NCBI GenBank assembly: GCA_021801225.1
Contig: JAJYYF010000011.1
Span: 6,113 to 70,112 of the forward strand
Direction of reading: 5' to 3'
Length of the DNA: 64,000 nt
Origin: Candidatus Micrarchaeota archaeon
Lineage (GTDB): Archaea; Micrarchaeota; Micrarchaeia; Micrarchaeales; CABMGC01
A program made the position numbers and the translations under genes. This document shows, piece after piece, positions 7,813 to 58,339 of the stretch. A model generated the notes under the pieces. That model ran no database searches, was not told the DNA's origin, and was given only the letters and a program-made list of their open reading frames with translations. Every line of letters starts with the position of its first letter. Position 1 is the first letter of the stretch.

Positions 7813-8448
7813 TTACTTCAATTTGGAGATTAACTGAGAGTAATTAGAGGTTTTCTTTCCATATTTAGTTAATTTCCTTTTTTTGTTATTTATTATTTTT
7901 TGCATTAATTGTATCTCTCCTGATCTAAGGAACTTGAATATACCTTTATTCTTTTTATTTAACTCACGTGCAATTTGATTAAGTGCTTTTTCTTCTTTAC
8001 TCATTCGTGTATTATATGATCCTACCTTTCTTTCTATTCCTGAGATTAACAGTTCATGATACTTCTTAATTGAACGCAGATCTCTTGCTTTTGCAGTTAA
8101 GCCTATTAGAATTATATCTGTTATTTCAGGGGTAAAGATATTTTGATAGCCAACAGCTAGCTTCTCAATGAATGTAAGATAACTTTTCAACTCAGGAGTT
8201 GTCATGTGTTTTGCATTTGATATAACATTTTGCATACATATTGCTTCATAGTCTAGATTCTTTAAAAGAACCTCCATCTTTGCTACATGTTCATCTAATA
8301 ATTGCAATGAAATTACTGATTTAGGATCAGATGTTTCTAATAATTTACCTCTCCATGTTTCTTTTATAATACGTCTTAATGCAACACCTTCAAATGAACT
8401 TGTTGAAGAAATTTCCTGACGATTATCTTTTGTTTGAATATTTACCAT
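7813..8448 (-). CDS. Hypothetical protein, predicted helical
   Basis: 211-aa intact ORF with a K-rich C-terminus. No motif recognised. Confidence 0.45.
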   Translation of the reverse strand: MVNIQTKDNRQEISSTSSFEGVALRRIIKETWRGKLLETSDPKSVISLQLLDEHVAKMEVLLKNLDYEAICMQNVISNAKHMTTPELKSYLTFIEKLAVGYQNIFTPEITDIILIGLTAKARDLRSIKKYHELLISGIERKVGSYNTRMSKEEKALNQIARELNKKNKGIFKFLRSGEIQLMQKIINNKKRKLTKYGKKTSNYSQLISKLK

Positions 8449-8462
8449 TTACACAACACTTT

Positions 8463-10843: not shown

Positions 10844-10948
10844 ACATTTTAATAATAAAGCTATATAATATATAGGCTAAATTAAAAGGCTTTCTGGAAC
10901 AAGTATGGTTTTGATTGCACTTTAAATTTAGAAAATTAAGGAGATTTT

Positions 10949-11635
10949 ATGGCTTTGAAAGAAGGAGATTTTGTAGAGATAGAGTATAGTATTTGGAGAG
11001 GTTCAGACAATAGTTTAGTATTGACAACTGAGAAAAAACTAGCTGAAGATAACAAAATATATGATAAAGAGTTTGTATACAAACCCAGATTAGTTATAAT
11101 TGGAAAGGATAATATGATAAAAGGAGTTACAGATGCACTTAAAGGAATGAACGTTGGAGAGAATAAAAAGCTTGAGATAACTCCAGAGAATGCTTTTGGG
11201 AATCGTATTCAAGAGTTAGTTCGTGTTTTACCTGTATCTGATTTTAGAAAGAGAGATATGGATCCATATCCTGGAATGCAGATAGAGATAGACGGATCTG
11301 TAGCTACTGTAATGAGTGTAAACTCAGGAAGGGTAATGGTAGATGCTAATCATCCATTAGCAGGAGAAAAGATAACTTGCGATTTAAAGGTATTGAAAAA
11401 ATTGGATAGTACTGAAGAAAAAGCAAAGAGCATACTCAACCAATATGGTTTAACACATGAAAAACTGCAGATAAATAACAAGGAATTGATCATAACTTTC
11501 GGAAGTGAGGTAAAAAAAGATGGAAAATACTTCATAGATAAGTCTTCAGCAGTAGATACAATAATTGCAAATGTTCCTGATGTAGAAAAAGTAGTTATAC
11601 AAGAAGAGTATAAAAAAGACTCTAAACAAAAGTAA
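10949..11635 (+). CDS. FKBP-type peptidyl-prolyl cis-trans isomerase (long archaeal SlyD-like type with insert-in-flap)
   Basis: 228 aa. EGDFVEIEY start, GENKKLEITPENAFG, and VMVDANHPLAGEKITCDLKVL. Confidence 0.85.
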   Translation: MALKEGDFVEIEYSIWRGSDNSLVLTTEKKLAEDNKIYDKEFVYKPRLVIIGKDNMIKGVTDALKGMNVGENKKLEITPENAFGNRIQELVRVLPVSDFRKRDMDPYPGMQIEIDGSVATVMSVNSGRVMVDANHPLAGEKITCDLKVLKKLDSTEEKAKSILNQYGLTHEKLQINNKELIITFGSEVKKDGKYFIDKSSAVDTIIANVPDVEKVVIQEEYKKDSKQK

Positions 11636-11675
11636 TAATTAATAATTAATTTTTGTTTTTTTTATTTTATTTTAA

Positions 11676-11873
11676 TTACTCGTTTATATTTAATGCATAA
11701 GTTCCGTTTACAGTAATACCTAATTTTTTAGCTATATCTGATTTTTCAACATTTAATATAACAACATATCCATTCCATTGCGTGGTCATATTGCTTTGAC
11801 CACAGATAGGACATTTTTCTCCTTGAGATATTATTACTTTGCAGTTACGACATGCTTTTTCCATATAACTCAC
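11676..11873 (-). CDS. spt4: Transcription elongation factor Spt4 (RNA polymerase subunit E'')
   Basis: 65 aa. CRNC...CPIC zinc ribbon followed by W.GYVVILNVEKSDIAKKLGI..GTYAL. Overlaps rpo7 by 4 nt, the conserved archaeal gene pair. Confidence 0.8.
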   Translation of the reverse strand: MSYMEKACRNCKVIISQGEKCPICGQSNMTTQWNGYVVILNVEKSDIAKKLGITVNGTYALNINE

Positions 11874-12463
11874 TTCTTTCCTGGGCGTGGTTTTGTATGT
11901 TTCTTGATTTGTTTTTTATCTTTTGTTTGAGGTTCTTTTAACCACTCTAGTTTACCTAGACCGTCAGGTCTCATTGTCAATGCTATTTTTGTATCTTTTA
12001 TATTGTTCTTAAGACTAATTGTTGATACTTTAGCGTATACCGTATCTCCTTTCTTTAGATTTTTTCCTGAAGTCCTTGATACAAATGCACTTGATTTTCT
12101 ATCATAATTTATGAAGTCGTTTGTTATTTGAGACATGTGAACTAAACCATCAATCGGACCTAATCTTACAAAACAACCGAAGTCTACTAATTCAGATACC
12201 TCCCCAGTAACTACTTCTCCGACATCTAAATTAAATGTAAGTAAATTAAATCGTACATTGTGATGTGTAGAGGGATCTCCTGGAAGAATAAATCCATCGC
12301 TTATATCTTTAACATCAAATAAAGCTAGTATTATGCCCAACTCTTTGTCTATAGTTCTTTCATATTTTGATCTTAATATTTGAGTTGCAGTAGTTTGTAT
12401 ATCCTCCCCAAAATTGCTAGGAGGTATGCTTATGGTATCTTTTATAGTATGTATGTAATACAA
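11870..12463 (-). CDS. rpo7: DNA-directed RNA polymerase subunit Rpo7 (E')
   Basis: 197 aa. N-terminal Rpb7-like domain plus an S1 fold (GEVVTGEVSELVDFGCFVRLGPIDGLVHMSQI). Confidence 0.85.
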   Translation of the reverse strand: MYYIHTIKDTISIPPSNFGEDIQTTATQILRSKYERTIDKELGIILALFDVKDISDGFILPGDPSTHHNVRFNLLTFNLDVGEVVTGEVSELVDFGCFVRLGPIDGLVHMSQITNDFINYDRKSSAFVSRTSGKNLKKGDTVYAKVSTISLKNNIKDTKIALTMRPDGLGKLEWLKEPQTKDKKQIKKHTKPRPGKK

Positions 12464-12525
12464 AATCTCACCTAAGGGTTAAAAATTATATTAATATTTA
12501 AGAGTAAATTAATTTAAGCTTATCG

Positions 12526-12936
12526 TTATCTTAGTTTCCCAGAGTTAGTTATGCTAATTACAGCAACTCCCATTGATTTTAGCTTTTTCCTTAATTTTAT
12601 ATCATTTGTGCATATTATATACTTCCCAGAGCTTGATTCTGAAAGTATCCATGAATCGACATATATATTTGAATCAACAACAGTTATGTTTCTATTTTTA
12701 TTTTTAATAGTATTCAATGCGATGTTTGCTTGAAGCTTTAATTTTTTTGAAGAATTAGAGAATTTCTTTAACTCACGAATAACTCCTTTTGAGATTAGTA
12801 TTTTTAAGTGAGAGTAGTTGTCGTTTTCTAATATTATGTCAAAGATATTTTTATTGTATTTTAAACCGAATAATATTGAACTCGTATCTATAATAAGTTC
12901 TTTGCTTTCCATGCAAAAATATTTATAACAAACCAT
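12526..12936 (-). CDS. PIN-domain protein (Fcf1/Utp24-like), conserved neighbour of rpo7-spt4
   Basis: LIIDTSSILF (N-terminal acidic residue) and CTNDIKLRKKLKSMGVAVI (C-terminal PIN motif). The real start is probably the internal MESKE (about 12912). Confidence 0.7.
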   Translation of the reverse strand: MVCYKYFCMESKELIIDTSSILFGLKYNKNIFDIILENDNYSHLKILISKGVIRELKKFSNSSKKLKLQANIALNTIKNKNRNITVVDSNIYVDSWILSESSSGKYIICTNDIKLRKKLKSMGVAVISITNSGKLR

Positions 12937-44839: not shown

Positions 44840-45286
44840 ATGCGATTATGGTCACTCAAATTATCATATTTAGATACAATGGGATTACTTGCAGTATGGA
44901 GAGAAGGATTATTAGCAAAAAAGGTACTAGAAGGTAAAACTAAAGGTTATAAAAATCATCCGCAGTTGGAGCGATTTAAAGCATTAGATGATCCATTAAT
45001 TGGAATTAATACATACTTAAATCAGGTTTATTTAGAGTCTCTTTCGAGGGATTATGCGTTTTCTAAAGATAAAGTAAATCCTTCTCTAATAGATAAAAAT
45101 GTAAAAATACCATTAAATGATAAACAGTTAAGTTATGAGTTTGAGTTATTAAAAACAAAACTTAAAATTAGAGATAATAAAAGTTATCAAAAGATAAAAG
45201 ATATAGAAATACCGGAACATGTCTCTATTTTTTCAATAAGAAAAGGCCCAATAGAAAATTGGGAAAAAATTAAAAAACTTAATTAA
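44840..45286 (+). CDS. Pyrimidine-dimer DNA glycosylase (T4 endonuclease V-like) family protein
   Basis: MRLWSLKLSYLDTMGLLAVWREGLLAKKVLEGKTKGYKNHPQLERF matches the family N-terminus as I recall it. Confidence 0.6.
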   Translation: MRLWSLKLSYLDTMGLLAVWREGLLAKKVLEGKTKGYKNHPQLERFKALDDPLIGINTYLNQVYLESLSRDYAFSKDKVNPSLIDKNVKIPLNDKQLSYEFELLKTKLKIRDNKSYQKIKDIEIPEHVSIFSIRKGPIENWEKIKKLN

Positions 45287-47984
45287 TAACAGTTACATTG
45301 TGAGATTTAATGTAATCTGGATTGCTGACATTTACTGCTACTTTCGCACCCATTATTGTTGTATTGTATAATGAAAATCCTTTTCCAGAGTCAATTATTG
45401 GATATGTAAAGCCAACGAGATAACAGTTTGATATTGTTACTCCAGTAGTATTTATGTTAGCAAATGTTCCTCCATTTGTTGCATATATTGTATGACCACG
45501 GCAGTTTATCACTGTGTTGTTTGTTATTTTTCCATTTTCATTGTTTATAACATAACAAGTATTTCCATAAGAGTAAACCATATCGCTTTGGAAGCTAACA
45601 AATCCAGAGTTTGCAAAATTAAAGCAGGATTCGGTAGAATCAGGATTGATTGAAACTAACCAAGGACAACCTGATTTTTTAATACCAGTGTTTATGTTCA
45701 TTTTATTAGAAATTAGATTTTCTCCTGCTCCGCAATAATAATCTTGTTGGAAGTTGCTTAGCGCTTTATTTCCAGATACATTGTCATTTGATGAATTAGA
45801 AATACTGAAACCATAAACAGGATTACTGTTTCCAACATTTCCTACTACTTTACTTTCGGTAACATTATTCAATGCAAAACCAGTTGCATTGAAAAGACCG
45901 CTGCTTGCAACATCATTTTCAATTGAGATCTGTTTTCCATTTGTTATTGAAATTCCATATAATCTAAATGCGGATATCTTTACATTTCCAATTGAGCTAT
46001 CAGTTACATTTTTATAAACTGATCCTTGTGATACTTCAGATATTGTAGTATTTTGTAGATCTAGATTATTGAGATTTGATGCGTAAATTCCGTAATCATA
46101 ACTTTGAATTTGACAGTCTGAAATACTAACATTGCTGTTGCCATTATCAATTATACCATATCCATTATTTGTCCCGCTAATCAATTTATTATTACAATTT
46201 AATTTTACATCTGGAGCTTTTATTGATATACAACTTCCACTTGATGTTAAGTTTTGATTTATTTGGTATGTTCCAGGAATTGATATTGTTTGACATAATG
46301 TTATTGGGATAGTTTGAAGTGGGGGTGGAAGTTGTTTAGTACAAGTATTAAATGCGAATTGACACTCAGTACTTACGCAACTTGAGTTATAAATACTAGC
46401 AACTGATGAAGAGTTGTAGGTACTAGCTGGACAGTATATATCTCCTGCAAGATTATTTTTAGTATTAATTTTATTGTAAACATTTGAGTTACCTTTGTCT
46501 AAATATTGGCCATATAGATTACCAGATGTTGTTACATTTTGTATAACAAAGCCTATGCTTTGATTTTCATAAACTCCGAATTGATTATTGTTTGATATAG
46601 AGTTGCTCAACAAACCAGAGGTAGAGTTCTTAATATAAACACCGTAATTACCTTGAGTTGCGGTTATATTGAATAAGTTCGTGTTTATAGAGCCATTTAC
46701 AAATAAACCATATGTATTGTATTTAAGATCACAGTTTTCTACAGTTGTATTGTAAAGATCTTTTAAGTATATTCCATAATAAGAACTGACTATTGTTTTA
46801 CCGTTACAATTAAGTTTAACATTAGGCGCAGTTATTGTTATGCAAGGATAACTAGATGCACCTTTAGTATAATCACTTAAGTTGAGATTTTGCAAAATTG
46901 TGTAAGTACCATAGCTATCTATTGCACCACAAGTGTTAATGTCCTTTGATAACTTTACATTTTCTATACTATAATAATTATTTGAGCTACAAGTTGCAAA
47001 GTTACAGAGTTGATTATTTTGACATGTTGTTTTTGAGAAGTTATTTGTGTTCTTTGTATTAGCATTTGAACCACAGATCAAATCAGTAGGATTTTGCAAA
47101 AATGTATCTCCATAAAAGTTATTGCCAGTACTGTTTACATACAAGCCATAATATGCATTATTTATAAATGAAGTTCCAGAGAACAAATTACTTGTTCCAC
47201 TGTTGATATTAACGCCTCCGGAATTACTTTGAGAACCATATATTGTATTGTTTATTATTTTATTGTGAGAAGAGTTGTTCAAAAACATGTTAGATAATGT
47301 AGAATTTGATAAATACAAATCAGTTAAGTTGTTGTTATTTGAGTTCTTTAAATACAAGGAGTAAGAAAATCTTGAAACATTAAGCTTATTTATTGAAACA
47401 TTTGAAACTCCGGAAAGTAATATCCCATAAGTGAATGGTGCAACATCTATGTATGGACCACTTCCTTTTAAGTGATAGTTGTTTCCATTTATTATGACAT
47501 CACTTGAAAGTACTTCTATACAGCTTCCACTTTTAATTGATGTAGTTATATTACCAGTTACTGTGTAAATACCAGGTTGATTTATTACAGTACATGAGCT
47601 TAAATCCTTTGATTGAAAACTAGCAACTGTTGTCGTAGAGTTCGATGAAGTTTGAGTTGTTGTAGTGGATTGATTTGAAGTAATTGAGTGTAAATAAGGG
47701 AAAGAAAATACAAACGCAACAAGTATTATCCCTATTATTGGTATAATATAAAATTTTTTTCGTATTTTTTTATTATTGTTTTGTTGTGGTTGTTGTGCTT
47801 GAGTTTTATTATTAGCATTGTTATTTTTATTTGGATTATTATTAGTAGGAGCAACAGTAGAAGTGGTAATATTGCCTGAGTCACTAACATTGTTATTACC
47901 CGTATTATTACTATTATTAAACTGAGATTTATTTTGGTTATTAATAGTTGATTTTTGATTACTATTTGTGGGATTGTCTGCCAT
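45279..47984 (-). CDS. Surface protein with right-handed parallel beta-helix repeats, an N/Q-rich N-terminal tail and a signal anchor
   Basis: 901 aa. About 75 aa of N/Q/T low complexity, TM IIPIIGIILVAFVF, then repeated units of the NosD/PbH1 type (CxxIxxxGxYxLxxNL...CIxIxAPxVxLNCNG, seen twice) with many cysteines. Confidence 0.6.
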   Translation of the reverse strand: MADNPTNSNQKSTINNQNKSQFNNSNNTGNNNVSDSGNITTSTVAPTNNNPNKNNNANNKTQAQQPQQNNNKKIRKKFYIIPIIGIILVAFVFSFPYLHSITSNQSTTTTQTSSNSTTTVASFQSKDLSSCTVINQPGIYTVTGNITTSIKSGSCIEVLSSDVIINGNNYHLKGSGPYIDVAPFTYGILLSGVSNVSINKLNVSRFSYSLYLKNSNNNNLTDLYLSNSTLSNMFLNNSSHNKIINNTIYGSQSNSGGVNINSGTSNLFSGTSFINNAYYGLYVNSTGNNFYGDTFLQNPTDLICGSNANTKNTNNFSKTTCQNNQLCNFATCSSNNYYSIENVKLSKDINTCGAIDSYGTYTILQNLNLSDYTKGASSYPCITITAPNVKLNCNGKTIVSSYYGIYLKDLYNTTVENCDLKYNTYGLFVNGSINTNLFNITATQGNYGVYIKNSTSGLLSNSISNNNQFGVYENQSIGFVIQNVTTSGNLYGQYLDKGNSNVYNKINTKNNLAGDIYCPASTYNSSSVASIYNSSCVSTECQFAFNTCTKQLPPPLQTIPITLCQTISIPGTYQINQNLTSSGSCISIKAPDVKLNCNNKLISGTNNGYGIIDNGNSNVSISDCQIQSYDYGIYASNLNNLDLQNTTISEVSQGSVYKNVTDSSIGNVKISAFRLYGISITNGKQISIENDVASSGLFNATGFALNNVTESKVVGNVGNSNPVYGFSISNSSNDNVSGNKALSNFQQDYYCGAGENLISNKMNINTGIKKSGCPWLVSINPDSTESCFNFANSGFVSFQSDMVYSYGNTCYVINNENGKITNNTVINCRGHTIYATNGGTFANINTTGVTISNCYLVGFTYPIIDSGKGFSLYNTTIMGAKVAVNVSNPDYIKSHNVTVIN

Positions 47985-48080: not shown

Positions 48081-48191
48081 GCTCCGGTAGCTCAGTAGTA
48101 GAGCGCTTGTCTCGTAAAAACTTTTAATAAAAGTTTTATAAAAAATAATCGAGAGAACAAGAGGTCGAGGGTGCGATTCCCTCTCGGGGCT
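48081..48191 (+). tRNA. tRNA-Thr (anticodon CGU) with a 39-nt intron at 37/38; serves as the integration target
   Basis: Hand-folded. Acceptor GCTCCGG/TCGGGGC; D arm GCTC-AGTAGTA-GAGC; anticodon stem CTTGT/ACAAG; loop CTCGTAA; T arm GAGGG-TGCGATT-CCCTC. The intron (about 48117-48155) gives a clean BHB: CTCG/CGAG 4-bp helix plus an AAAACTTTT/AAAGTTTT hairpin. Confidence 0.8.
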
Positions 48192-48194
48192 AAT
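48179..48194 (+). repeat. attL core (direct repeat CCCTCTCGGGGCTAAT)
   Basis: Covers the T-stem 3' strand, the acceptor 3' strand, the discriminator and 3 nt beyond. Identical copy at 58324-58339. Confidence 0.8.
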
Positions 48195-48258
48195 AACTTA
48201 TTGTAGTAATACCCCCTTCAGTAAAGGTTTAAATATCTTTACTTTTATATACTTAACG

Positions 48259-49512
48259 GTGCTTTCAATGTCGAGTGAAACCGCTTTTACGAAGAAGAAG
48301 CAGAGAGGCATGAAGCCTCTTGAAGTTATTATTGGAAGGAAACAGCAGATGATATTAGATGGGTTCTATGCCTACCTCAAGGCTAATGGTAGAGGAGAGA
48401 GGACAATGTTCAGGCATGTTTACTGCCAGAGGAGGTGGCTTACCTATGCTGGTGAAGACTTTGATTATGAAACAGCCACTAAACAGCAGATTGAGAGCAT
48501 AGTGGGTAAGGTAAGGTCTGATAGTAAATTAGCTCCAGCGACAAAGAATAAGATACTGATAAGCATAAAACTGCTCTATAAGTGGCTTCTCGGTGATGGA
48601 GAAGAGTATCCCAAGCAGGTTAGATGGATTAAGGCTAATATTGGTAAGGAAAAGAAGATTACATCAGCAGAGATTTTAACGGAGAATGAAGTTATTAAGA
48701 TGATTAAAAGCACAAAAAAGGCTAATCTTAGAGATCGTGTAATAATTGCTTTGCTTTGGGATACTGGAATGAGGATAGGAGAGTTGCAGAACCTACGGAT
48801 AAGGGATATTGATATAACTTCTGACCAGAATGGTGTTTCACATGTTACAATCCCATTAGAAGGAAAGACAGGAACAAGGCAAGTACCTATCTTTATGTCA
48901 GTGCCTTACATCCTTGATTATCTGCAAGAGATGGGTGATATGGGTAGAGATGCTTATTTACTCAATTATTATGAAGGCAGATGGGCAGATATGAAGATGA
49001 AAGGAGTGCTTGATGGTAATGCAATCCGTAAAATGTTAAGGGTAACAGCCAAACGTGCTGGTATAGAAAAGAGAATATATCCTCACTTATTTAGGCATTC
49101 TCGTGCAACTTACTACGCCAATAGGATGACTGAACAGCAATTAAAATCCTTCTTTGGCTGGACTCCGACTTCAGGCATGGCAGGACATTATACACATCTA
49201 TCAGGTAGGGACATTGATTCTGCTGTTGCTAAAGCTAACAATCAGGAAGTAGAAGAGAAGATTGCTCCTGCCCTTGTCAATAAGGTTTGCCAAAGATGCC
49301 ACACAAAAAACGCAATAACCGCAATATACTGTAATGTATGTACTTTGCCTCTTGACATAAGCCAATTAGAAAAGGTTAGACAAGAACAACAGAAAGAATT
49401 AGCTCGTAGTTTGGTATTAGAGATTACACAAAATCCTGATGCTTTGAAGAATTTATTGGGGAATGTAAAGTTAAGTAAGGCAGATAAAAAGCGACTTCTT
49501 GAAACATTGTAA
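48259..49512 (+). CDS. Tyrosine recombinase/integrase with a C-terminal zinc ribbon
   Basis: 417 aa. TGMRIGELQNLRIRDI (Arg I), HLFRHSRATY (HxxR), GHYTHL (catalytic Tyr region) and CQRCH...CNVC. Confidence 0.85.
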   Translation: MLSMSSETAFTKKKQRGMKPLEVIIGRKQQMILDGFYAYLKANGRGERTMFRHVYCQRRWLTYAGEDFDYETATKQQIESIVGKVRSDSKLAPATKNKILISIKLLYKWLLGDGEEYPKQVRWIKANIGKEKKITSAEILTENEVIKMIKSTKKANLRDRVIIALLWDTGMRIGELQNLRIRDIDITSDQNGVSHVTIPLEGKTGTRQVPIFMSVPYILDYLQEMGDMGRDAYLLNYYEGRWADMKMKGVLDGNAIRKMLRVTAKRAGIEKRIYPHLFRHSRATYYANRMTEQQLKSFFGWTPTSGMAGHYTHLSGRDIDSAVAKANNQEVEEKIAPALVNKVCQRCHTKNAITAIYCNVCTLPLDISQLEKVRQEQQKELARSLVLEITQNPDALKNLLGNVKLSKADKKRLLETL

Positions 49513-49557
49513 TCATAACCCATAAATGCTTTAAAGACACTATAATTTAGTGATTTT

Positions 49558-50010
49558 ATGACGACAAATACAAAACAGATAGCGGAGCAGAGGAAAAGAG
49601 TACCTACAGAGAGTGAGTTAAACAAGATGATGGGCTGGAAACCTAAACTGCCAGAGTTTCCTGAGAATATACAGATAGCAGTACATAGTGCGAAAAATTT
49701 TGCTACCAATATGATTGGATACTCCAAGCTACTTCGTATTGGTGAATATGGTAAACTAAGTAAAAAGCAGAGGGATACACTGGGAATTGTAGTCGAAGAA
49801 GGAGATTATTTGATAGCAAGTCTAACAGAACTGTCCGATTTGGTGTATAAATATAAGAGGCAAAATAAAAATAAAGAGATAAAGGAGCACATGATAGACA
49901 TAGGCATTATCTGTGAATGGTTCTTGAGGTATGAAAAGTTATCAAAGAAGGAGAAAGATATGATGAGGTCTATAAAGAAAAATGCTGATGATGCAAGGAA
50001 GTTGATATGA
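49558..50010 (+). CDS. Element-encoded hypothetical protein
   Basis: 150-aa intact ORF 45 nt after int. Helical. Only a faint resemblance to a HisKA-like dimerisation helix pair (HSAKNFATNMIGYSKLL...LTELSDL). Confidence 0.4.
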   Translation: MTTNTKQIAEQRKRVPTESELNKMMGWKPKLPEFPENIQIAVHSAKNFATNMIGYSKLLRIGEYGKLSKKQRDTLGIVVEEGDYLIASLTELSDLVYKYKRQNKNKEIKEHMIDIGIICEWFLRYEKLSKKEKDMMRSIKKNADDARKLI

Positions 50011-50259
50011 TGACAAAAATAACCACTATTTTACTCAGTATTATAGACAAGACCTCTTATTTTACAGAGAGTAAAAACCAAAATCTTTGGTCTAGACACT
50101 TATTTCTTGAAGGGTATAAATGTCGGGTTGAGATATGATAACACGTTTTAGCCCCATTTGCAAGCGTCCTAAGAGGGTATCCAGAGCCTCAAAAGAGGTC
50201 TTCCAAGCCTGAGAGGATACCTCAAACAGTTATAGAAGGGGTTAAAGGGGGGATTAAGC

Positions 50260-50526
50260 CTATATCTTCTCTAGCTTCTTAACGATCTCCTTTCCCTTCT
50301 TTGAGATTATGTAGGCATTCATGTATCTCCTCTCAGTCTTAAGAGGTACAATCTCAATAAGTCCATACTTTAGTAGTCTTGATAGCTTAGAGGATAAAGT
50401 CATCTCACTTCTCACATACTTCTTAAGCTCCACAAATCGCTTAGGCTCATTTTCTAAGGCATGAAGTATATCCAAGACATAAGGTTGTAGGACTATTCTT
50501 ATTATGTCCAGCTTACTCTCTACCAT
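50260..50526 (-). CDS. Winged-helix transcriptional regulator (small, ArsR/HxlR-like)
   Basis: 88 aa. ILHALENEPKRFVELKKYVRSEMTLSSKLSRLLKYGLIE is a wHTH pattern. Confidence 0.6.
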   Translation of the reverse strand: MVESKLDIIRIVLQPYVLDILHALENEPKRFVELKKYVRSEMTLSSKLSRLLKYGLIEIVPLKTERRYMNAYIISKKGKEIVKKLEKI

Positions 50527-50660
50527 AATAGTTTGATAGGAAATACTTATATTCTACTTATTGGAACTAGGAGTAAGCTATTGATAACTGGAGTATGCTC
50601 TTTAGCCATATAGCAAGTAATAAAATACTTAGTGTGTTAGACATAGTTAGAGGTTTATAG

Positions 50661-51167
50661 GTGGCAGGAGATGCAGCAGAGGATATTGTAAATGTTTGGT
50701 TAAATGAAAAAGGTTACTTTACTAGACGAAACATAAAAGTTGGTAGAAAAGAGATAGATTTATTAGGCATCAATAAGGAAGGTAAAGGAGTCCATGCTGA
50801 AGTTACAGTTTCAATAAATCCTTTTACCAAAAACATAGCTAAAGAAAGAAAACAGACAAGAGATTTTTATACAAAAAAATTCAAGGACAAAGAAATTACA
50901 GACAAAATTCATGAATTACTCGGACGACATAAGAAATATCAAAAATGGATCATTCTTGGTATCAAAGAAAGTAAAAGAAAGACTGAGAAGGAGAAGAAGA
51001 AGAATAGAGAAAAATGGAGAAAAGTTTGGAAAAATCGAGGTAAAGTTAAGGAAGTTCGTTTTATGGATGAGGTATTAGAAGAGATAGATTTCAAAGAAGT
51101 ACCACAGGATTATGCGAGTAACTTTATTATGATACTTAAGAAATATGATAAGAAGGCTACTACTTGA
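50661..51167 (+). CDS. Putative PD-(D/E)xK-fold nuclease (Hjc/YraN-like core) with a K/E-rich C-terminal extension
   Basis: 168 aa with a GTG start. GDAAEDIVNVWLNEKGYFTRRNIKVGRKEIDLLGI...VHAEVTVS follows the G..aE..v..yL...G......g..EIDli....VEVK layout. Confidence 0.45.
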   Translation: MAGDAAEDIVNVWLNEKGYFTRRNIKVGRKEIDLLGINKEGKGVHAEVTVSINPFTKNIAKERKQTRDFYTKKFKDKEITDKIHELLGRHKKYQKWIILGIKESKRKTEKEKKKNREKWRKVWKNRGKVKEVRFMDEVLEEIDFKEVPQDYASNFIMILKKYDKKATT

Positions 51168-51852
51168 CTAACTCTATCAATCCATCAAGCCTACTGCAAT
51201 CTTTACAGCCATCTACTCCATCAGGTATCTTTACACTAGAGTATATCTTCTCAGCTTTCTCAAGCAGCTTTTCAACCTCAGCAGTATCTTTCTTTATCTT
51301 GTGTATTTTAGGCAAGAAAGGCATCTCAAAACCCCCATCAGTAGTATGCTTGCTGGATAACTCATCAAATCTCTCCTTATATGGAGGCTCAAAATAGATT
51401 AAGAAAAGGTCTTTTACTGGCTTATTGCCCATAGCTTCTGAAATGTAAGCATATCCATTAAGCTGGATTTGGTATATTGGCATGAACTCTCCTTGACTTC
51501 CTGTATATTTGGCGGTCTTATAATCGGCTATAACGAAGCTATCGTCAGGTCTCTGAAAAAGCAGGTCTGGGATGCCTGTAAGCATCATGTCTCCTTTTAC
51601 CACCTTAAACTCAGAAGGCTTGATGCTTACGATTCTCCTTACCTCTCCTATCTCTTCTAGCCATGCTGGTAGCTCTCCATTCCTCTCAAAGTATTTCTCA
51701 ACAATATGTTTAGTATAGGTGTCAATAGAGGAGAAAATGCCGGGAAAACCCATCTGATAAGGGAGGCCTTTGGCGTGCCTCTCTATCCAGAAGCATCTAG
51801 GACAGAAGCTAGACTCTTTAAGCCATCCTAAGTCCTTTGCTGAGATACGCAT
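51160..51852 (-). CDS. Cas4/RecB-like PD-(D/E)xK nuclease with flanking Cys pairs
   Basis: 230 aa. GIPDLLF...FVIADYKTAKY (D...D/ExK), QLNGYAYI (QxxxY), CPRC near the N-terminus and CKDC near the C-terminus. Its 3' end overlaps the convergent 168-aa gene by 8 nt. Confidence 0.7.
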   Translation of the reverse strand: MRISAKDLGWLKESSFCPRCFWIERHAKGLPYQMGFPGIFSSIDTYTKHIVEKYFERNGELPAWLEEIGEVRRIVSIKPSEFKVVKGDMMLTGIPDLLFQRPDDSFVIADYKTAKYTGSQGEFMPIYQIQLNGYAYISEAMGNKPVKDLFLIYFEPPYKERFDELSSKHTTDGGFEMPFLPKIHKIKKDTAEVEKLLEKAEKIYSSVKIPDGVDGCKDCSRLDGLIELVK

Positions 51853-51972
51853 ATAAACAAAGTTAATCTAGGCACTAAGATATATAAAATTGTAGGAACA
51901 TATACAGTACACAAAATGCGTAAGGCAACGCTATACAAATAGCCAACTATTTCTGGGTGGAATTTATAAGAT

Positions 51973-52974
51973 TTGCGGTTCTATCTGTTAGCGTATGCTT
52001 TAAATAGTTTAGAATGGTGTTTATTTATGGGAAAACAAGTGGTTGATACATCAATGTCAAACTTAACACATCAATTCACAAATCTTGCAGGAAAAGATGG
52101 TGTGACTATGAAAGATATATTATTGCAAAGTATAAAAAATACAAAAAAGGAATTAATTGGGAATAATAATGGATATCATTTTTTGATAACTGGCAATTCT
52201 ACTGACATATTAAAAAAACTGCCAGATGATAGCATAGATTTGATAGTTACAGATCCGCCCTATAACAAAGGCTTGGATTACGGTTCGTATTATAATGATA
52301 ATAAAGCATGGAAAGACTATTTTGTAGAAATGAAAATGTGGCTAATCGAAGCCAATCGAGTTCTTAGAAAAACAGGCACATTGTATCTAATAAGCTATCC
52401 TGAGATTAATGCTCGCCTATTGCCATTTATAGAAGATGAATTAGCTCTTAAATTTAGGAGATGGATTACATGGCATTATCCAACAAATATAGGGCATTCA
52501 AAGAAAAATTTTACAAGAAGTCAGAGATCAATATTATTTTTCACCAAAAGTAATAACTATGTATTCAACGAGGAAAACATAATTCAACCTTACAAGAACC
52601 CAACAGTTGCTAAAATAAAGGAAAGAATTAGGCTTGGATCGAAAGGTAGGCATTCCTATGATCTATTAAATCTTTTAGATATGATTGAGCTAAATAAAGA
52701 TATGATAGATGTTATAGATATAAATTTATTAAAAAACGTGTCTAAAGATAGATTCAATAAAAAACACCCTTGTCAATTACCTTTGTCTCTTTTAAGAATA
52801 TTAGTTAAAGTGAGTAGCAATAAAAATGATGTTTTATTAGATCCATTTGCAGGAACATTTACTCTTTCTGCAGTTGCAAAAGAACTGGGAAGAAATTCTA
52901 TAGGGATAGACTTAAATCCTCAGTATGTTAAATTAGGATTGAAGCGACTGAAAACAAACCAGGTACTTCTATGA
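51973..52974 (+). CDS. DNA amino-methyltransferase (N6-adenine or N4-cytosine), beta-class motif order
   Basis: LIVTDPPYNKG (motif IV) precedes LDPFAGTFT (motif I). The likely real start is the ATG at about 52027 (MGKQVV). Confidence 0.85.
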   Translation: MRFYLLAYALNSLEWCLFMGKQVVDTSMSNLTHQFTNLAGKDGVTMKDILLQSIKNTKKELIGNNNGYHFLITGNSTDILKKLPDDSIDLIVTDPPYNKGLDYGSYYNDNKAWKDYFVEMKMWLIEANRVLRKTGTLYLISYPEINARLLPFIEDELALKFRRWITWHYPTNIGHSKKNFTRSQRSILFFTKSNNYVFNEENIIQPYKNPTVAKIKERIRLGSKGRHSYDLLNLLDMIELNKDMIDVIDINLLKNVSKDRFNKKHPCQLPLSLLRILVKVSSNKNDVLLDPFAGTFTLSAVAKELGRNSIGIDLNPQYVKLGLKRLKTNQVLL

Positions 52975-53144
52975 ACACAATTAAAGAATACATAACAAAT
53001 AGCAAGGAGCTTACTCAGAAGGAGAAATCTCTAATTCAAAAAATGTATGAGAATACACTTATACATGAAAGTGATGCTGATCTGGAAAGTATATTAGACC
53101 AACTTCTAGAAAAAAATATTAAGGAAGATGATAGTAATGAGTAG
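52971..53144 (+). CDS. Untracked 57-aa ORF bridging the methyltransferase and the ATPase
   Basis: MNTIKEYITNSKELTQKEKSLIQKMYENTLIHESDADLESILDQLLEKNIKEDDSNE. Its ATG overlaps the MTase TGA (ATGA), and its end overlaps the ATPase start by 17 nt. Confidence 0.4.
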   Translation: MNTIKEYITNSKELTQKEKSLIQKMYENTLIHESDADLESILDQLLEKNIKEDDSNE

Positions 53145-55038
53145 AGAAATTGTGGCAATGGAAATTAAAAATTTCAGGCCATTTCACGATGTAAAATTAG
53201 AATTTAAAGAGGGAAAGAAAAACAAGTTAATTTCATTTGTTGGAACTAATAGATTTGGAAAATCAAATTTACTTAATGCAATATTGTGGTGTTTATATGG
53301 AGATGAAGCAATAAAATATAGTGCAGATTCAGATAAGCACGTTCTCAAAAATGAACGTTATGTAAATGAAAGGACAGAAGTATCTTTAACGTTTAATGAT
53401 AGTCATATAGTGAAAAGAGCTGAAAATAGTTTTACTGTTCTTAAAAAGGAATCAGGAAATAAATACCAGAGTGTTGATAGCCCAGAGATCTATATAAGAA
53501 ATAATCTTCTACCACAAGATATTAGCAAGTTCTTTTTGTTTAAAGGCGAATTTCTTGATTCGTTTTTTGAAAAACAAAACGGGCAAGCACTTAAAGAAAC
53601 AATCCTTAATGTATCTGGTATAGACACTTTAGAAAGAATGAGTAAAACGCTAGAGGATCTTAAAGAAAGATACAGACAGGACATTTCAAAAGTTGATAGA
53701 AATAATCAAGATTTAGAATACTTACAAAAACAGATAGATATCTATTCACAAAGTACTGCTGTATTAGATTCAGATATTAAGCGTATTGATGGTATCCTAA
53801 CCTATGACACTCAACGATTAAATGAAATAGCTAAACAATTGAGAAGTAGAAATATTGATAAGATAACAGAGATTATTGAGCAAGAACAAATGTATAAGAA
53901 AGATGTAGAAAGTCTGAATGACGATATAAAAGAACTTCGAAATAAGATATTTATAAGATTTTTTGGGGAACTATCTCCATGGTTTATATATAATGCAAAT
54001 AAGAAGTTTAAGAAGCACTTACAGCATTTAGTTGAAACAGGAAGAATCCCATTACCCGCAGAACCTAATTTAATTGAGAAAATATTTGAGGACAACAGAT
54101 GTATCTGTGGTTGTAAAATGAACTCAGCTATGAAAGCACAATTAACTAACCTGCTAAAAAAACTAAAAGAAGACAGTCCCAAAGCCAACCAACTACATAG
54201 AATTAATGTACTTTTATCTGTTGATACTTCTAAGTTTAATAATGCAAATAAAGAGCTTAAGAAGTTACTAAGTGACAAAACTGAGAAGGAGAAAAGAATA
54301 AAAGAAGTAAATGAAAAATTAAAAGTTGCCTCTGAAAGTATAAAAGGTCTAAATAAAGCAGATGTAACTAAGCTACAGGCTGAAAAGGAAACTTTAAATG
54401 AAGATATTGGAAAACAAAATGCATTAAGAGATCAGAAAATTAGTGATTTGACCAGAGCAAAGGATATGAAGGCTAAATTTGAATCTGATTTTAGTAAGAT
54501 GGCTACTAAGTCGTCAAAAAGTAAATCTTTAGCAGAAAAACTTCAAAGAGTAGTGCTGTTAAATGAAAAGATGATTAAACTAATAAGTGAAATATCTGAA
54601 GATATATTAAGAAAGTTAAATAATAATACTCAAAAATACTTCAAAGACATCTTCTGGAATAACTACAAGTACATGAATTATAATGTCAAAATAGATAAAG
54701 AATTTAATGTTACTCTCATGTCGCCTGAAGGGAATAATATGTTAGCTTTAGCTTCGACAGGAGAAACTAAAGTTCTAGCATTATCATTTATGTCAGCCCT
54801 ATCTGCTTATTATGGTTTTGATTTCCCTTTGATTATTGATGCCCCATTTTCTGCACTTGATCCAGATGTTATTTTAAAGGTTTTAGAGGCATTAAAAGAA
54901 CTATCTAAAGATAGTCAGATATTGGTATTGACAACTCGTCATGATGTAAATGTAATGCGGGAGCTAAAGAAAGTATCCTTAGATAACTTTATGTTAGATA
55001 AAGATGCTAAGGATAATACTATAATTAAAAAGATATGA
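53128..55038 (+). CDS. SMC/DndD-like ABC-type ATPase with a long coiled coil and a central Cys cluster
   Basis: 636 aa. IKNFRPF...GTNRFGKSNLLNAILWCLYG (Walker A), FLFKGEFLDSFF, about 400 aa of K/E/L-rich heptad-like sequence, CICGC at residues 325-329, STGETKVLALSFMSAL (signature-like) and PLIIDAPFSALD (Walker B). Confidence 0.75.
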   Translation: MIVMSREIVAMEIKNFRPFHDVKLEFKEGKKNKLISFVGTNRFGKSNLLNAILWCLYGDEAIKYSADSDKHVLKNERYVNERTEVSLTFNDSHIVKRAENSFTVLKKESGNKYQSVDSPEIYIRNNLLPQDISKFFLFKGEFLDSFFEKQNGQALKETILNVSGIDTLERMSKTLEDLKERYRQDISKVDRNNQDLEYLQKQIDIYSQSTAVLDSDIKRIDGILTYDTQRLNEIAKQLRSRNIDKITEIIEQEQMYKKDVESLNDDIKELRNKIFIRFFGELSPWFIYNANKKFKKHLQHLVETGRIPLPAEPNLIEKIFEDNRCICGCKMNSAMKAQLTNLLKKLKEDSPKANQLHRINVLLSVDTSKFNNANKELKKLLSDKTEKEKRIKEVNEKLKVASESIKGLNKADVTKLQAEKETLNEDIGKQNALRDQKISDLTRAKDMKAKFESDFSKMATKSSKSKSLAEKLQRVVLLNEKMIKLISEISEDILRKLNNNTQKYFKDIFWNNYKYMNYNVKIDKEFNVTLMSPEGNNMLALASTGETKVLALSFMSALSAYYGFDFPLIIDAPFSALDPDVILKVLEALKELSKDSQILVLTTRHDVNVMRELKKVSLDNFMLDKDAKDNTIIKKI

Positions 55039-55042
55039 TTTT

Positions 55043-55444
55043 ATGGAACTTGATAAGCCACCTAGAGATATAACAGTATCTGAAGGAGATAGAGAGAAAT
55101 ACTCATGGCTGAGCACAAAATTTAATTTAGAAGTAAAGCAGATATTTTTGCTAGCAGTTAAAGTTGGGTTTTTTTATGGTCTAAGAGACAAAGTAAAAAA
55201 TCACAGATCAATTGCTCAATTTTCAACTTTTTCAGATGATGATATTAAAGATATGATCACTATAGCTTATGCAGAATTAGAGAGTGATAGTGCGATATTC
55301 GATGGTAAAAAAGTTGTTGGAATATGTGAAGAATATGCTACTGGCGGAATTTCAAAGTTATACAAACAATTTGCAGGAGCAAATAAAGAGGATGTGAAAA
55401 TAATTGAAGATATGGTAGACGAATTAGCAAATGAAGTTAAGTAA
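55043..55444 (+). CDS. 133-aa partner protein of the ATPase (unknown; possibly a dnd-associated small-protein family)
   Basis: Starts 4 nt after the ATPase stop. IFLLAVKVGFFYG...ICEEYATGGISKL resembles a small protein family I recall near dnd/DndD-like genes. Unverified. Confidence 0.45.
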   Translation: MELDKPPRDITVSEGDREKYSWLSTKFNLEVKQIFLLAVKVGFFYGLRDKVKNHRSIAQFSTFSDDDIKDMITIAYAELESDSAIFDGKKVVGICEEYATGGISKLYKQFAGANKEDVKIIEDMVDELANEVK

Positions 55445-55445
55445 T

Positions 55446-57581
55446 TTACTTAAGTAGGTTATAAACATCACTTATATTGTAAAAACTAATGAGTTTTTGT
55501 AAATTATCATCACGAAAAATATCTCTTTTATTACTTGAATATTTTACAAATTCAAATGCTCTATTCAGTTCTTTTTTAAGAAGCTTTTGTTCTATCTCAA
55601 AAATACTAGCTTCTTTCTTTATTGCTGATAAACTAGCTACTGTAACAAAATCAAATATTTCAGCAACTTTAGTATCATCTGTTTTCCTAAGAACTCGTCC
55701 TCGTCTTTGTATATATTCTCTTGGATTAGCAGAACTCGCTAAAATTATTGCATTTTTTGCTTCTTTTATGTTTATCCCTTCATCCAGAACCTTTATTGAA
55801 AGTAGAATGTCAATATTCCCACTTCTAAAATCTTTAAGTATCTTGATCCTTTCTTCTCTACTTTCTTCACCTGTGATCTGAGAGTGAATAAATCTTAGGT
55901 CGTCTAATATCTCTTTGACGTCATTAAGTTGGTTCTTATCTATACAAAAGATAAGAGTATATTTTAACTTCTTTTCTTGATTTAGTAAATTAAGTACCTC
56001 TCTTAGACGATCTAGTTTATTCTCTGACGACTTTGTTATTTTTGACCTTTCAGTTAGAAGAAGTTTCAAGTAATCTTCATCCTCTTTACTTCTAAGGTAA
56101 TGAGATTTTTTATTTAACTTCTTAGTCAATTTTATATATTCATCAAACTCTATTGATGATAATTCTGTCAGTTTTATATAATAATTATAAGGGCATAGTA
56201 CATTGTCTTTTATCGCATCTCCTATACTATATCTAAAGACAATATTACCAAAAAATTCTTTTATAGCGTCCGTACCGCCAGCGTCAAATAATCTATCTGG
56301 AGTTGCACTTAAACCCAACCTATAGCTAAATAGTGTTTTTATTGATTCGTCCTTTAATATATCCTTACCTGTTTCGGATCCGAATGTGTGAACTTCATCA
56401 GCAATAACTAGTGCATTAGTTACTTTATAATTTTTAATATATTCAATCATATTAGCTAAACTATCGTACGTGCTGACTAAGACTATCCTTTTTGATCTGC
56501 CCTTTTTATGCTCATGCAATAAATTTTCAATATTTTTTCTCCATTGCTCCTTACTGCTTACTGACAAAAGATCGTCATAATCTTCATATGACTTTACATC
56601 GCTTATCCACTGGTCGCAAATCTCTTGTGTAGGTGCTAATATAACAGCAGTGCCAACTTTCGCTATATCAAAAAATGTATGAAGTGCCTTTAGCCCTACC
56701 CAAGTTTTACCTGTCCCTGTAGCCATTTCTATTATACCATTGAACTTTGCCTGACTCCAATTCTCTATAGACTTTTCTTGATATTTTCTTAGATTTAATT
56801 CGGCTTTTTGAATTATCTTAGATCCAACTTGTCTAGTTTCTACATTCCCTTCTAAAACATCAAAGTTTATCTCTTGCGAATCTTCCGGAGCTAATTTTAT
56901 AATTTTGGTTTTAATAGCTTCGTCCAATGCTACTACTGAAACTTTATCATATTTGTTCTCCCATAATCTAAAGAAATGTTCATTATCTGTATCAAAATAT
57001 TTCTTTTCTCTAGAATCCCATGCTTTAAAAACCTTAAATTCTTCTATATTGTGTAACCAACCTGCACCTGTTTCATTTATAGATCCACTAAAGGAGATAG
57101 CATTACCTTCAGTATCTTTTACTATACCTACCTTCTGATGAAATAATGCAGAAAACTCTTTGCCAGATTCTTTCTTAGGAAAGGCGACTTTTATCTCTAA
57201 AAGGTTATTTGCTAACATCCAAGCGAATGCTTTTATTGACTCCTTAATAAACAAGCTCTCAATTTTTTCATACTCGGCTAGGAGTTTATCAACTTCGTTC
57301 ATAATCAAATCAGGATACATTATAGCTTGTTCTGCTGCAGATATGTCTTCATTTTTAACAAAACAACCAGTTATTAGTTTTATTTTACCATCACTTTTAA
57401 TTAGTTCACTTACACCCTTCGCAGCTACGGCAAAAGAATCTGAAGAGAAGAAGCCAGTTATTCTGTAATACTCCTTGGCCACAGATAGAGTAGGTACATA
57501 GAATTCTTGTAAAACATTACTGTCCTCAGAAGAATATGCTGTTTTAAGAGATATATCTTTTAAAGATTTTGAAATAACCAT
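55446..57581 (-). CDS. Fusion of a PLD-family (single HKD) nuclease domain and an SF2 (ResIII/DEAD-like) helicase
   Basis: 711 aa. YRITGFFSS, HQKVGIVKD...FSGSINETGAGW (HxK..D...GSxN), MATGTGKT (motif I), VIADEVH (motif II), LSATP (motif III) and QRRGRVLR (motif VI). Confidence 0.8.
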   Translation of the reverse strand: MVISKSLKDISLKTAYSSEDSNVLQEFYVPTLSVAKEYYRITGFFSSDSFAVAAKGVSELIKSDGKIKLITGCFVKNEDISAAEQAIMYPDLIMNEVDKLLAEYEKIESLFIKESIKAFAWMLANNLLEIKVAFPKKESGKEFSALFHQKVGIVKDTEGNAISFSGSINETGAGWLHNIEEFKVFKAWDSREKKYFDTDNEHFFRLWENKYDKVSVVALDEAIKTKIIKLAPEDSQEINFDVLEGNVETRQVGSKIIQKAELNLRKYQEKSIENWSQAKFNGIIEMATGTGKTWVGLKALHTFFDIAKVGTAVILAPTQEICDQWISDVKSYEDYDDLLSVSSKEQWRKNIENLLHEHKKGRSKRIVLVSTYDSLANMIEYIKNYKVTNALVIADEVHTFGSETGKDILKDESIKTLFSYRLGLSATPDRLFDAGGTDAIKEFFGNIVFRYSIGDAIKDNVLCPYNYYIKLTELSSIEFDEYIKLTKKLNKKSHYLRSKEDEDYLKLLLTERSKITKSSENKLDRLREVLNLLNQEKKLKYTLIFCIDKNQLNDVKEILDDLRFIHSQITGEESREERIKILKDFRSGNIDILLSIKVLDEGINIKEAKNAIILASSANPREYIQRRGRVLRKTDDTKVAEIFDFVTVASLSAIKKEASIFEIEQKLLKKELNRAFEFVKYSSNKRDIFRDDNLQKLISFYNISDVYNLLK

Positions 57582-57632
57582 ATTAGTCCTCCATAATAAG
57601 ATAGGACTGAGAATCTTTAAATAATCGTCCGT

Positions 57633-58250
57633 TTAGGCAACAGTCGGCTTACTCTCTGGCTTTATTAGGGTATCAGAAGAGGGGGTTTGATTTGACCACC
57701 TAACAAACTTATTACACTCATCACGTATTGGTTTAATGTCGCCATTATGCACTTTTCCATTCTCTAGGCGAATGCCACAGCCACAATTAACAGGGTGCCT
57801 GCCTCCTATCTTACCTTGTGCCTTTGCTCTTTTAAGTCCAAGCATAGTCCTTTCATGGATTATATCCCTTTCAAAATTAGCCAGTAGTGCTAGGATATTA
57901 GCCATAAACCTGCCCATTGAAGTGCTTAAATCAATTCCTTCCTGTATAGAGAATAGGCTCTTGCCGTTTTTATTAAATTCTTCAAGTTCAAGGATCAGTT
58001 CGGATAAATTCCTGCCCCATCTATCAAGTTTCCATACTGCAACACCATCAATTTCGCCAAGCCTTAACTTCTTTAGGACTTCCTCTTTTCGAGGCCTTGT
58101 ATCCTTACTACTTACCTCATCAACATATTCTCCTTCAATTTCTACACCTGCCTTCTTTGACCATTCACGCAGGGCTATAAGCTGGTTCTCAGGGTTCTGT
58201 TCTAATGCCTTTGAAACTCTGGCATATAAAGCGACTCGCATGTAATCCAC
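57633..58250 (-). CDS. Serine recombinase (resolvase/invertase catalytic domain) with a Cys-containing C-terminal tail
   Basis: MRVALYARVSKALEQNPENQ (catalytic Ser), VWKLDRWGRN, and the E-helix ERTMLGLKRAKAQGK. The C-terminus NCGCG...C has no obvious HTH. Confidence 0.85.
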   Translation of the reverse strand: MDYMRVALYARVSKALEQNPENQLIALREWSKKAGVEIEGEYVDEVSSKDTRPRKEEVLKKLRLGEIDGVAVWKLDRWGRNLSELILELEEFNKNGKSLFSIQEGIDLSTSMGRFMANILALLANFERDIIHERTMLGLKRAKAQGKIGGRHPVNCGCGIRLENGKVHNGDIKPIRDECNKFVRWSNQTPSSDTLIKPESKPTVA

Positions 58251-58323
58251 TCAGTGTTATGTTCAAGACTTCTTGTAAAACCGATGTCAAAAACAGAGGC
58301 AAAGGTAACCGCTACTACGACTG

Positions 58324-58339
58324 CCCTCTCGGGGCTAAT
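58324..58339 (+). repeat. attR core (direct repeat CCCTCTCGGGGCTAAT)
   Basis: Identical to 48179-48194. The flanking bases differ on both sides. Confidence 0.8.

Follow-up and report, generated by a model that had tools for sequence, protein, structure and literature searches.

PbeABCD, named by Xiong (2019; PMC6459918), consists of PbeA, the 66-amino-acid (aa) protein PbeB, the DndD/SMC-like protein PbeC, and the 152-aa protein PbeD. In a haloarchaeon, PbeABCD protects against virus SNJ1 only in combination with phosphorothioation by DndCDEA; this protection requires each of the four pbe genes, and a virus that carries the phosphorothioate (PT) modification escapes. Viral DNA replication is blocked by PbeABCD, and no cleavage has been detected (PMC6459918). 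Moreover, dnd genes are missing from 320 of 553 pbeAC loci, and 155 of these 320 lie near DNA methyltransferase (MTase) genes (PMC6459918). Here, a related locus is described: a five-gene cassette at positions 51973-57581 of a 64,000-nucleotide (nt) stretch of contig JAJYYF010000011.1 from a Candidatus Micrarchaeota archaeon (this whole stretch is called the window). Its membership in the Pbe family is secure, and the cassette is quite probably an MTase-linked PbeABCD system, also known as a CxC ABC-ATPase-DndE-anchored counter-invader system, carried as the cargo of a mobile element in a DPANN archaeon.

The components of Pbe were re-annotated by Rakesh et al. in 2024 (PMC10853773). PbeA combines an HKD nuclease domain with a superfamily 2 (SF2) helicase, PbeB is a small, disordered, and rapidly evolving protein, PbeC is an ABC ATPase of the CxC clade with a zinc hook, and PbeD is a cognate of DndE that contains two ribbon-helix-helix (RHH) units. 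As far as its treatment of CxC ABC-ATPase-DndE systems goes, this work builds on Krishnan et al. (2020). CxC versions whose methylases are of the cytosine C5 or the permuted N4 type, often together with MTaX1, were described (PMC10853773). Methylase-linked PbeABCD had thus already been described computationally (PMC6459918, PMC10853773). The mechanism of Pbe is disputed: no cleavage was seen in the tested system (PMC6459918), whereas the HKD domain has been taken to imply that PbeA must cut, or, alternatively, that the system acts by a suicide mechanism (PMC10853773).

In the window, the five open reading frames (ORFs) are confirmed as an MTase, a 57-aa ORF, an ATPase of 636 aa, a 133-aa ORF, and a 711-aa ORF. 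The first four are read from the forward strand (52027-52974, 52971-53144, 53128-55038, and 55043-55444, respectively), and the last is read from the reverse strand (55446-57581). As read from the sequence, the tetranucleotide ATGA at 52971-52974 contains both the MTase stop codon TGA and the ATG with which the 57-aa ORF begins. This ORF in turn shares 17 nt with the start of the ATPase gene; the overlap shrinks to 8 nt with the alternative ATG at 53137, which is the start chosen by public gene callers. A 4-nt spacer separates the ATPase stop from the start of the 133-aa ORF, and the 133-aa and 711-aa genes converge, with their stops 1 nt apart. The maximal MTase ORF (51973-52974, forward strand) encodes 333 aa from a TTG at 51973; the public annotation of the contig starts at the ATG at 52027, which is most likely the true start and yields a protein of 315 aa. 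The arrangement is not due to chance, because the same core is found in unrelated contigs.

The initial annotation, made from the sequence alone, had described five tightly packed genes with coupled junctions, and every ORF, overlap, and gap was found again at the positions it gave, as were its motifs (TDPPY before DPFAGTFT, the CICGC cluster at 54100-54114, the HKD motif, the Walker A motif GTNRFGKS, and the SF2 motifs). It had further regarded the genes as a single defence cassette with the logic of modification plus nuclease/helicase, which is borne out by the family identities and the recurring core; the comparison of gene order that it proposed shows the four-gene core in related loci, plasmids, and viral contigs. 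Its statement that the combination matches no named system has to be given up, as its list of such systems omitted Pbe: the profile searches that it suggested return the PADLOC models for PbeA (E = 5.6e-198) and PbeC (E = 3.1e-66), so the label "unassigned" falls.

Comparison with the DndCDEA-PbeABCD locus of Haloterrigena (Natrinema) jeotgali A29 (PMC6459918) reveals the same components, namely, an HKD-SF2 PbeA, a PbeC that resembles DndD, and the small proteins PbeB and PbeD, in archaeal hosts and with the shared logic of modification and restriction. PbeB and PbeD are shorter in the window (57 versus 66 aa and 133 versus 152 aa, respectively). The gene order also differs, as A-B-C-D are co-directional in H. 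jeotgali A29, whereas B-C-D converge on A in the window. The major difference lies in the mark, which in H. jeotgali A29 is a phosphorothioate made by DndCDEA; in the window, no sulfur genes were found and a beta-class MTase gene overlaps pbeB.

The 711-aa protein matches the PADLOC PbeA model along residues 6-686, and its sequence assigns it to PbeA, in which the HKD nuclease domain is N-terminal to the helicase. Its helicase part is covered by TIGR04095 (dnd_restrict_1) with 358 bits, which is under the cut-off of 600, and Pfam recognizes ResIII, Helicase_C, and, weakly, PLDc_2; these matches uphold the earlier view of a phospholipase D-type nuclease-helicase akin to dnd-associated restriction components. 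The catalytic motif H148-x-K150-x5-D156 (HQKVGIVKD), followed by G166-S-x-N169, is encoded at 57114-57140 on the reverse strand (translation checked). In particular, H148, K150, D156, G166, S167, and N169 are all invariant in eight PbeA homologues (31-73% identity), and the SF2 motifs GxGKT, DEVH, SAT, and QRRGR are kept across the same eight proteins. The nearest solved helicases are XPB/Rad25, and PbeA of the window is approx. 32% identical to haloarchaeal PbeA. An ATP-dependent SF2 translocase-nuclease accompanied by a DNA MTase, with a match to ResIII, is reminiscent of Type I and Type III restriction-modification (R-M) systems; however, the nuclease of PbeA is of the HKD rather than the PD-(D/E)XK type, and the MTase, an enzyme of the beta class, stands alone and is Type II-like. 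Moreover, Type I and Type III systems use HsdS or Mod, whereas in the window the target is presumably read by the ABC-ATPase/RHH pair. Membership of the cassette in Type I/III R-M, Lamassu, or Wadjet was considered and rejected.

The 636-aa ATPase carries the Walker A motif GTNRFGKS and matches the PADLOC PbeC model ahead of DndD (E = 3e-40), which places it by sequence in PbeC, the CxC clade, and agrees with its earlier description as DndD-like. Cysteines C325 and C327 (C325-I-C327, 54100-54108, forward strand; translation checked) are invariant across 17 PbeC homologues, the most distant of which are 15% identical. The CICGC cluster had been placed at the position of the Rad50 zinc hook; this was apt insofar as CxC defines the ATPase clade, but only C325 and C327 are conserved in the PbeC alignment, and the third cysteine is not. 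An AlphaFold2 (AF2) model with a predicted local distance difference test score (pLDDT) of 83.5 contains a split ABC head and two long arms of helix, formed by residues 165-303 and 333-509; CxC lies in the sole non-helical break between them (304-332). The head, which is Rad50/SMC-like, is split by a coiled coil of approx. 350 aa. The alignment and the model together suggest that CxC at the coiled coil's apex is a putative zinc hook.

The best Foldseek matches of the PbeC model are Rad50, SMC, LmuB, and JetC. As Rad50-Mre11, Lamassu (LmuB), and Wadjet (JetC) also rely on coiled-coil ABC ATPases that act on DNA, and as both the N-terminal sequence of PbeC and its fold are Rad50-like, with an apical cysteine hook resembling that of Rad50, the ATPase and its small neighbours might be regarded as ordinary Rad50/SMC repair paralogues without a role in defence. 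The initial annotation had named this as an outcome that would contradict it. However, PbeC fails the Rad50 model, where it scores 56.9 bits and 700 would be needed, and the SMC model (26 bits, cut-off 567), and no Mre11/SbcD-type nuclease or kleisin partner adjoins it. The coiled coil is much shorter than those of the three systems, the partners are an RHH reader and an HKD helicase, and an MTase is linked. PbeC is always accompanied by PbeA, PbeB, and PbeD, and its gene is part of a mobile element, which a sister genome lacks. A repair paralogue is effectively refuted by the empty site together with the conservation of the Pbe context, and it has only a negligible probability.

PbeD is the 133-aa protein, for which TIGR04062 (dnd_assoc_4) gives a weak match (E = 1.4e-3), as does the precomputed Pfam family PF27807. 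An EEYANGG motif is common to PbeD and an aligned "DNA phosphorothioation-associated protein 4". A word-based search with the 133-aa protein alone retrieves four close relatives, whereas a profile built from nine PbeD sequences recovers 1271 homologues, nearly all of PF27807. The AF2 model (pLDDT 92.7) is composed of a strand-helix-helix unit that occurs twice and a C-terminal helix. Its best 15 matches to the Protein Data Bank (PDB) in Foldseek are all DndE (4lrv, 5wtu, 7x4e); relaxosome proteins with tandem RHH units come next. On the basis of this model, PbeD is a predicted DNA-binding protein, cognate to DndE, with two RHH units, and the earlier proposal that the 133-aa protein is dnd-associated gains support from both family and fold. 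The link to DndE comes from fold comparison only, as a sequence-profile search of PbeD against the PDB gave no match. PDB searches also yielded no structure of any Pbe protein.

The 57-aa ORF encodes an acidic protein (pI 4.5) that occupies the PbeB position and is, judging from its position, tblastn matches, and substitution pattern, PbeB-like. It has no family match in Pfam, PADLOC, NCBIfam, or PHROGs. At every locus examined, an ORF of 50-83 aa is found in the same slot upstream of PbeC; in the related loci, it is an ORF of 50-58 aa immediately before PbeC. The identities of PbeB to its counterparts in the related loci L016, L012, L013, and L015 (introduced below) are 74, 39, 36, and 34% (tblastn E values of 1e-18 to 1.6e-7), whereas PbeA reaches 73, 52, 52, and 50%. 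The proportion of nonsynonymous differences (pN, 0.13-0.15) is lower than that of synonymous differences (pS, 0.49-0.80), which indicates purifying selection. Because the slot is kept, pN is below pS, and the identities fall off in this way, the 57-aa ORF is a real, fast-evolving gene.

The MTase matches Pfam N6_N4_Mtase (E = 9.7e-46) and PADLOC MTase_II (E = 5.2e-55). Numbered from the ATG, its motif IV, TDPPY (residue 76), precedes motif I, DPFAGTFT (residue 274), which is the order of the beta class. By established motif rules, a DPPY motif IV points to N6-adenine methylation. The best solved relatives over the full length are the N6-adenine enzymes M.MboIIA (1e-28) and M.RsrI, and resemblance to N4-cytosine enzymes is confined to motif I. 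The DPPY motif and these nearest solved relatives suggest that the enzyme makes N6-methyladenine (m6A). Compared with the methylase-linked CxC systems (PMC10853773), the cassette shares the CxC ATPase, the DndE cognate, the HKD-SF2 protein, the small protein, and a methylase in place of the PT genes. Those systems are predicted to use cytosine methylation by C5 or N4 methylases, whereas the window has one MTase, which belongs to the permuted (beta) N6_N4 family but carries DPPY and is nearest to N6-adenine enzymes; MTaX1 was not found.

The case for a functional link between MTase and Pbe rests mainly on related loci. A contig scan queried with PbeC alone had given one weak and irrelevant match (Treponema, residues 568-624), and gene contexts were gathered through the contigs that encode homologous proteins and through plasmid and viral collections. 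In the related archaeal-type loci L012-L016, which come from metagenomes and represent four independent relatives (PbeC identity 38-76%), the B-C-D / A core lies beside a DNA MTase gene. L016, whose PbeC is 73-76% identical, has the same MTase-B-C-D / A layout as the window, with an orthologue of the window MTase at the same position. In L012, L013, and L014 (PbeC approx. 40%), B-C-D converge on A, and a different MTase of 611 aa is encoded directly downstream of pbeA; in L015 (PbeC 38%), this larger type of MTase lies 3 kb upstream. These larger MTases of L012-L015 (611-620 aa) have motif I before NSPPY and are not orthologous to the beta-class TDPPY enzyme. In viral contigs L022-L028, two SPPY N6_N4 MTases are followed by MTaX1 and next by PbeA-B-C-D, encoded in one direction, which is the layout of the published methylase-linked subtype. 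Because the core is repeatedly associated with non-orthologous MTases, and because MTase and PbeB are coupled through ATGA, Pbe in the window cassette is probably coupled to methylation. As a separate observation, an ORF of 49-53 aa resembling DUF6364 lies just upstream of the 611-aa MTase gene within the operon that this gene forms with pbeA (L012:14235-14384 and L013:11764-11925) and may be an extra small component of the subtype with approx. 40% PbeC identity.

The initial annotation had noted that genes for sulfur incorporation are lacking and that an MTase stands in their place. Indeed, no DndC PAPS-reductase-like or DndA/IscS genes were detected in the element or in the 10 kb that flank it on each side, a tblastn search with SspA-D gave no match in the 64-kb window, and no PAPS-reductase or cysteine-desulfurase genes were found near the L012-L016 or L022-L028 loci. 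Canonical DndABCDE-DndFGH is related to the cassette in that PbeC belongs to a sister clade of DndD and PbeD is predicted to be a DndE cognate; however, DndA, DndB, DndC, and DndFGH are absent from the cassette, and PbeC has a CxC hook that DndD does not possess. The TIGR03185 DndD model scores PbeC with 100 bits, under its cut-off of 245.85, and with no DndC/DndA-type genes on the element or in its flanks, a canonical Dnd system was rejected.

Several points weigh against a methylation-coupled Pbe system. By Xiong's counts, approx. 165 of the 553 pbeAC loci have neither dnd nor MTase genes nearby (PMC6459918), and in a plasmid of Lactiplantibacillus plantarum PbeABCD stands alone. MTaX1 (PF20296), which is frequent in methylase-linked versions, was not matched among the element proteins scanned with library models, while L022 has a match at E = 1.1e-22. 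The base specificity of the MTase is read from motifs, the structural match of PbeD to DndE has an E value of only 0.06 (template-modelling scores of 0.57/0.70, probability close to 1), and in the literature a modification as the mark for Pbe has been shown for the PT version only. Moreover, the role of the MTase could lie with the mobile element itself, and the core may act without a mark, for example, by abortive infection, which is the alternative of Rakesh et al. (PMC10853773). The core is therefore modular, and a linked mark may not always be needed, because it occurs on plasmids either alone (L. plantarum) or beside Ssp-like genes (Rhizobium). The L. plantarum plasmid (NZ_CP040377.1) carries a complete PbeA-B-C-D module twice in tandem (L009:415-5222 and 7980-12787); the two copies have the same protein accessions, and no modification gene is annotated among the listed features. 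In a plasmid of Rhizobium indigoferae (NZ_CP140639.1), PbeB-C-D-A lies directly beside an SspABCD-like set (L008:10167-16410) comprising a cysteine desulfurase, a DUF4007 protein, a large ATPase, and a member of the PAPS-reductase family, which suggests that single-strand phosphorothioation of the Ssp type is another possible partner of Pbe.

These points can be combined into an explanation in which PbeABCD is self-contained and needs no modification: it would be a trigger-activated or suicide nuclease, as in the suicide-effector model (PMC10853773), with PbeB as an inhibitor that is released and the MTase as an orphan or anti-restriction methylase of the element. In addition to the loci without modification genes and the duplicated plasmid copies, it draws on the fact that mobile elements often bear orphan MTases. 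However, the MTase is translationally coupled with PbeB through ATGA, and an MTase adjoins the core at five related loci of archaeal type and on six viral contigs, though these enzymes are non-orthologous. Moreover, the tested system needed host modification, and the modified virus escaped (PMC6459918). A self-contained Pbe is thus considered unlikely here, and a core coupled to methylation is preferred.

The cassette is the cargo of a 10,145-bp element (48195-58339) integrated at a transfer RNA (tRNA) gene. This is concluded because a perfect 16-bp repeat stands at both ends of the element and because the site is empty in the sister genome L020 (ERZ27237454). The target is an intron-containing tRNA gene of 111 nt (48081-48191, forward strand; Rfam tRNA, 51.1 bits). 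The left attachment site, attL (48179-48194), consists of the direct repeat CCCTCTCGGGGCTAAT at the 3' end of the tRNA gene, and the second copy, attR, is located at 58324-58339. The alignment of L020 with the window breaks off at 48194 and starts again at 58324, and at the empty site of L020 the end of the tRNA gene runs straight into the sequence that follows position 58339 of the window. The repeat was found by this alignment and is absent from the top families of a generic repeat finder.

Recombinases are encoded at both ends of the element. A tyrosine integrase (48259-49512, forward strand) is recognized by Pfam Phage_integrase (E = 9e-19), an NCBIfam XerA-like family, and PHROGs (E = 3e-29). 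The right end encodes a serine recombinase of the resolvase/invertase type (57633-58250, reverse strand; Pfam Resolvase, E = 3.2e-37; PHROG, E = 2.5e-42). One element thus combines a tyrosine integrase at the tRNA end with a small serine recombinase at the opposite end. The element also encodes an HxlR-type regulator and three small proteins, whose ORFs, all on the forward strand, have no match in the four protein-family collections named above (49558-50010, 150 aa; 50007-50138, 43 aa; 50661-51167, 168 aa). In the 168-aa protein, a D...E-V-T pattern that recalls a restriction-endonuclease-like fold can be made out by eye, and the tail behind it is rich in lysine and glutamate.

Upstream of the MTase gene, and transcribed divergently from it, the element encodes a Cas4-like PD-(D/E)XK nuclease of 230 aa (51160-51852, reverse strand; Pfam PDDEXK_1, E = 1.6e-9; PADLOC Cas4, E = 5.6e-8) with cysteine pairs at both termini. 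PD-(D/E)XK is the commonest fold of restriction enzymes. Given this commonness, the divergent orientation of the two neighbours, which are 175 bp apart, and the Type II label assigned to the MTase by PADLOC, MTase and nuclease might constitute an ordinary Type II R-M pair, with PbeABCD as a second system that is merely adjacent. However, the nuclease resembles Cas4/RecB-type exonucleases with a cysteine cluster rather than a restriction-enzyme family, and the MTase gene is co-oriented with pbeB, which it overlaps, and not with the nuclease gene. No homologue of the nuclease was found in L012-L015, nor in L016, whose available sequence extends 487 nt upstream of the orthologous MTase gene. A Type II pair was rejected on the absence of the Cas4-like gene beside the orthologous MTase and in the other loci, and it is regarded as highly improbable. 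The four Pbe genes alone are conserved in the related loci, and an MTase of the window type is present in L016 only. Because the Cas4-like nuclease and the small proteins are not conserved in these loci, they are probably part of the element backbone, with the nuclease acting in recombination or replication.

The integration site is a hot spot for defence genes, because in the closely related sister genome L017 (ena:ERZ27237460 k141_673746) the equivalent position beside the tRNA gene is taken up by other defence genes. This stretch (L017:895-8558) encodes a Type IIG-like MTase fusion of 830 aa, a Gabija system with GajA (E = 2.1e-150) and GajB (E = 6.2e-204), and a 44-aa integrase remnant. 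Beside the hot spot, and conserved there in sister genomes, is the gene for a 901-aa protein rich in asparagine, serine, and threonine (45279-47984, reverse strand), probably located at the cell surface, with beta-helix (NosD-like) repeats and, at its N-terminus, a low-complexity region and a transmembrane segment. Sister genome L020 also has a ParE-toxin/DUF7557 pair inserted beside aIF5B (L020:11766-12247), which is absent from the window and adds a further minor difference between strains in genes of mobile or defence type.

How the methylation-coupled system might work can be outlined from these observations. We infer a scheme in which methylation serves as the self mark, labour is divided among the Pbe proteins, and PbeA may cleave. 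The beta-class MTase would mark host DNA at a short motif, likely with m6A. PbeC would dimerise via its CxC zinc hook and form with PbeD, as a tandem-RHH sequence reader cognate to DndE, an ATP-driven complex that scans DNA. On unmarked DNA, this complex would recruit or activate PbeA, presumably an XPB-like translocase on double-stranded DNA whose single HKD domain must pair with a second copy, and PbeA would block replication of the invader or cut its DNA. The acidic PbeB may act as a regulator, being either an inhibitor or a sensor of the trigger. More tentatively still, and with less confidence than the coupling itself, it can be suggested that the CxC-ATPase/DndE-like scanner is indifferent to the chemistry of the mark, so that here it reads m6A and licenses the HKD-helicase to halt replication of the invader, while phosphorothioate is read in the tested system and cytosine methylation is the predicted mark of the published methylase-linked versions. 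If so, the cassette would represent a distinct type of methylation-based restriction in which target recognition is handed over to an SMC-like complex, and its five genes, together with the element context and the empty site as a natural comparator, would provide the simplest system in which to test the need of Pbe for a mark and the cutting of DNA by PbeA.

The cassette does not overturn the current understanding of antiviral defence; it belongs to a known kind of antiviral system rather than to an unassigned one. Pbe has been tested once, in a haloarchaeon, and with phosphorothioation only. With one MTase gene, four Pbe genes whose catalytic motifs are intact, and neither MTaX1 nor Dnd found, the cassette offers a simple construct for questions about Pbe: whether methylation can replace the phosphorothioate as a self mark, what the ATPase-reader pair and PbeB do, and whether DNA is cleaved. 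Moreover, a Pbe system is hereby documented in the genome of a Micrarchaeaceae-like DPANN archaeon, which bears on the exchange of defence cargo among very small archaeal genomes.

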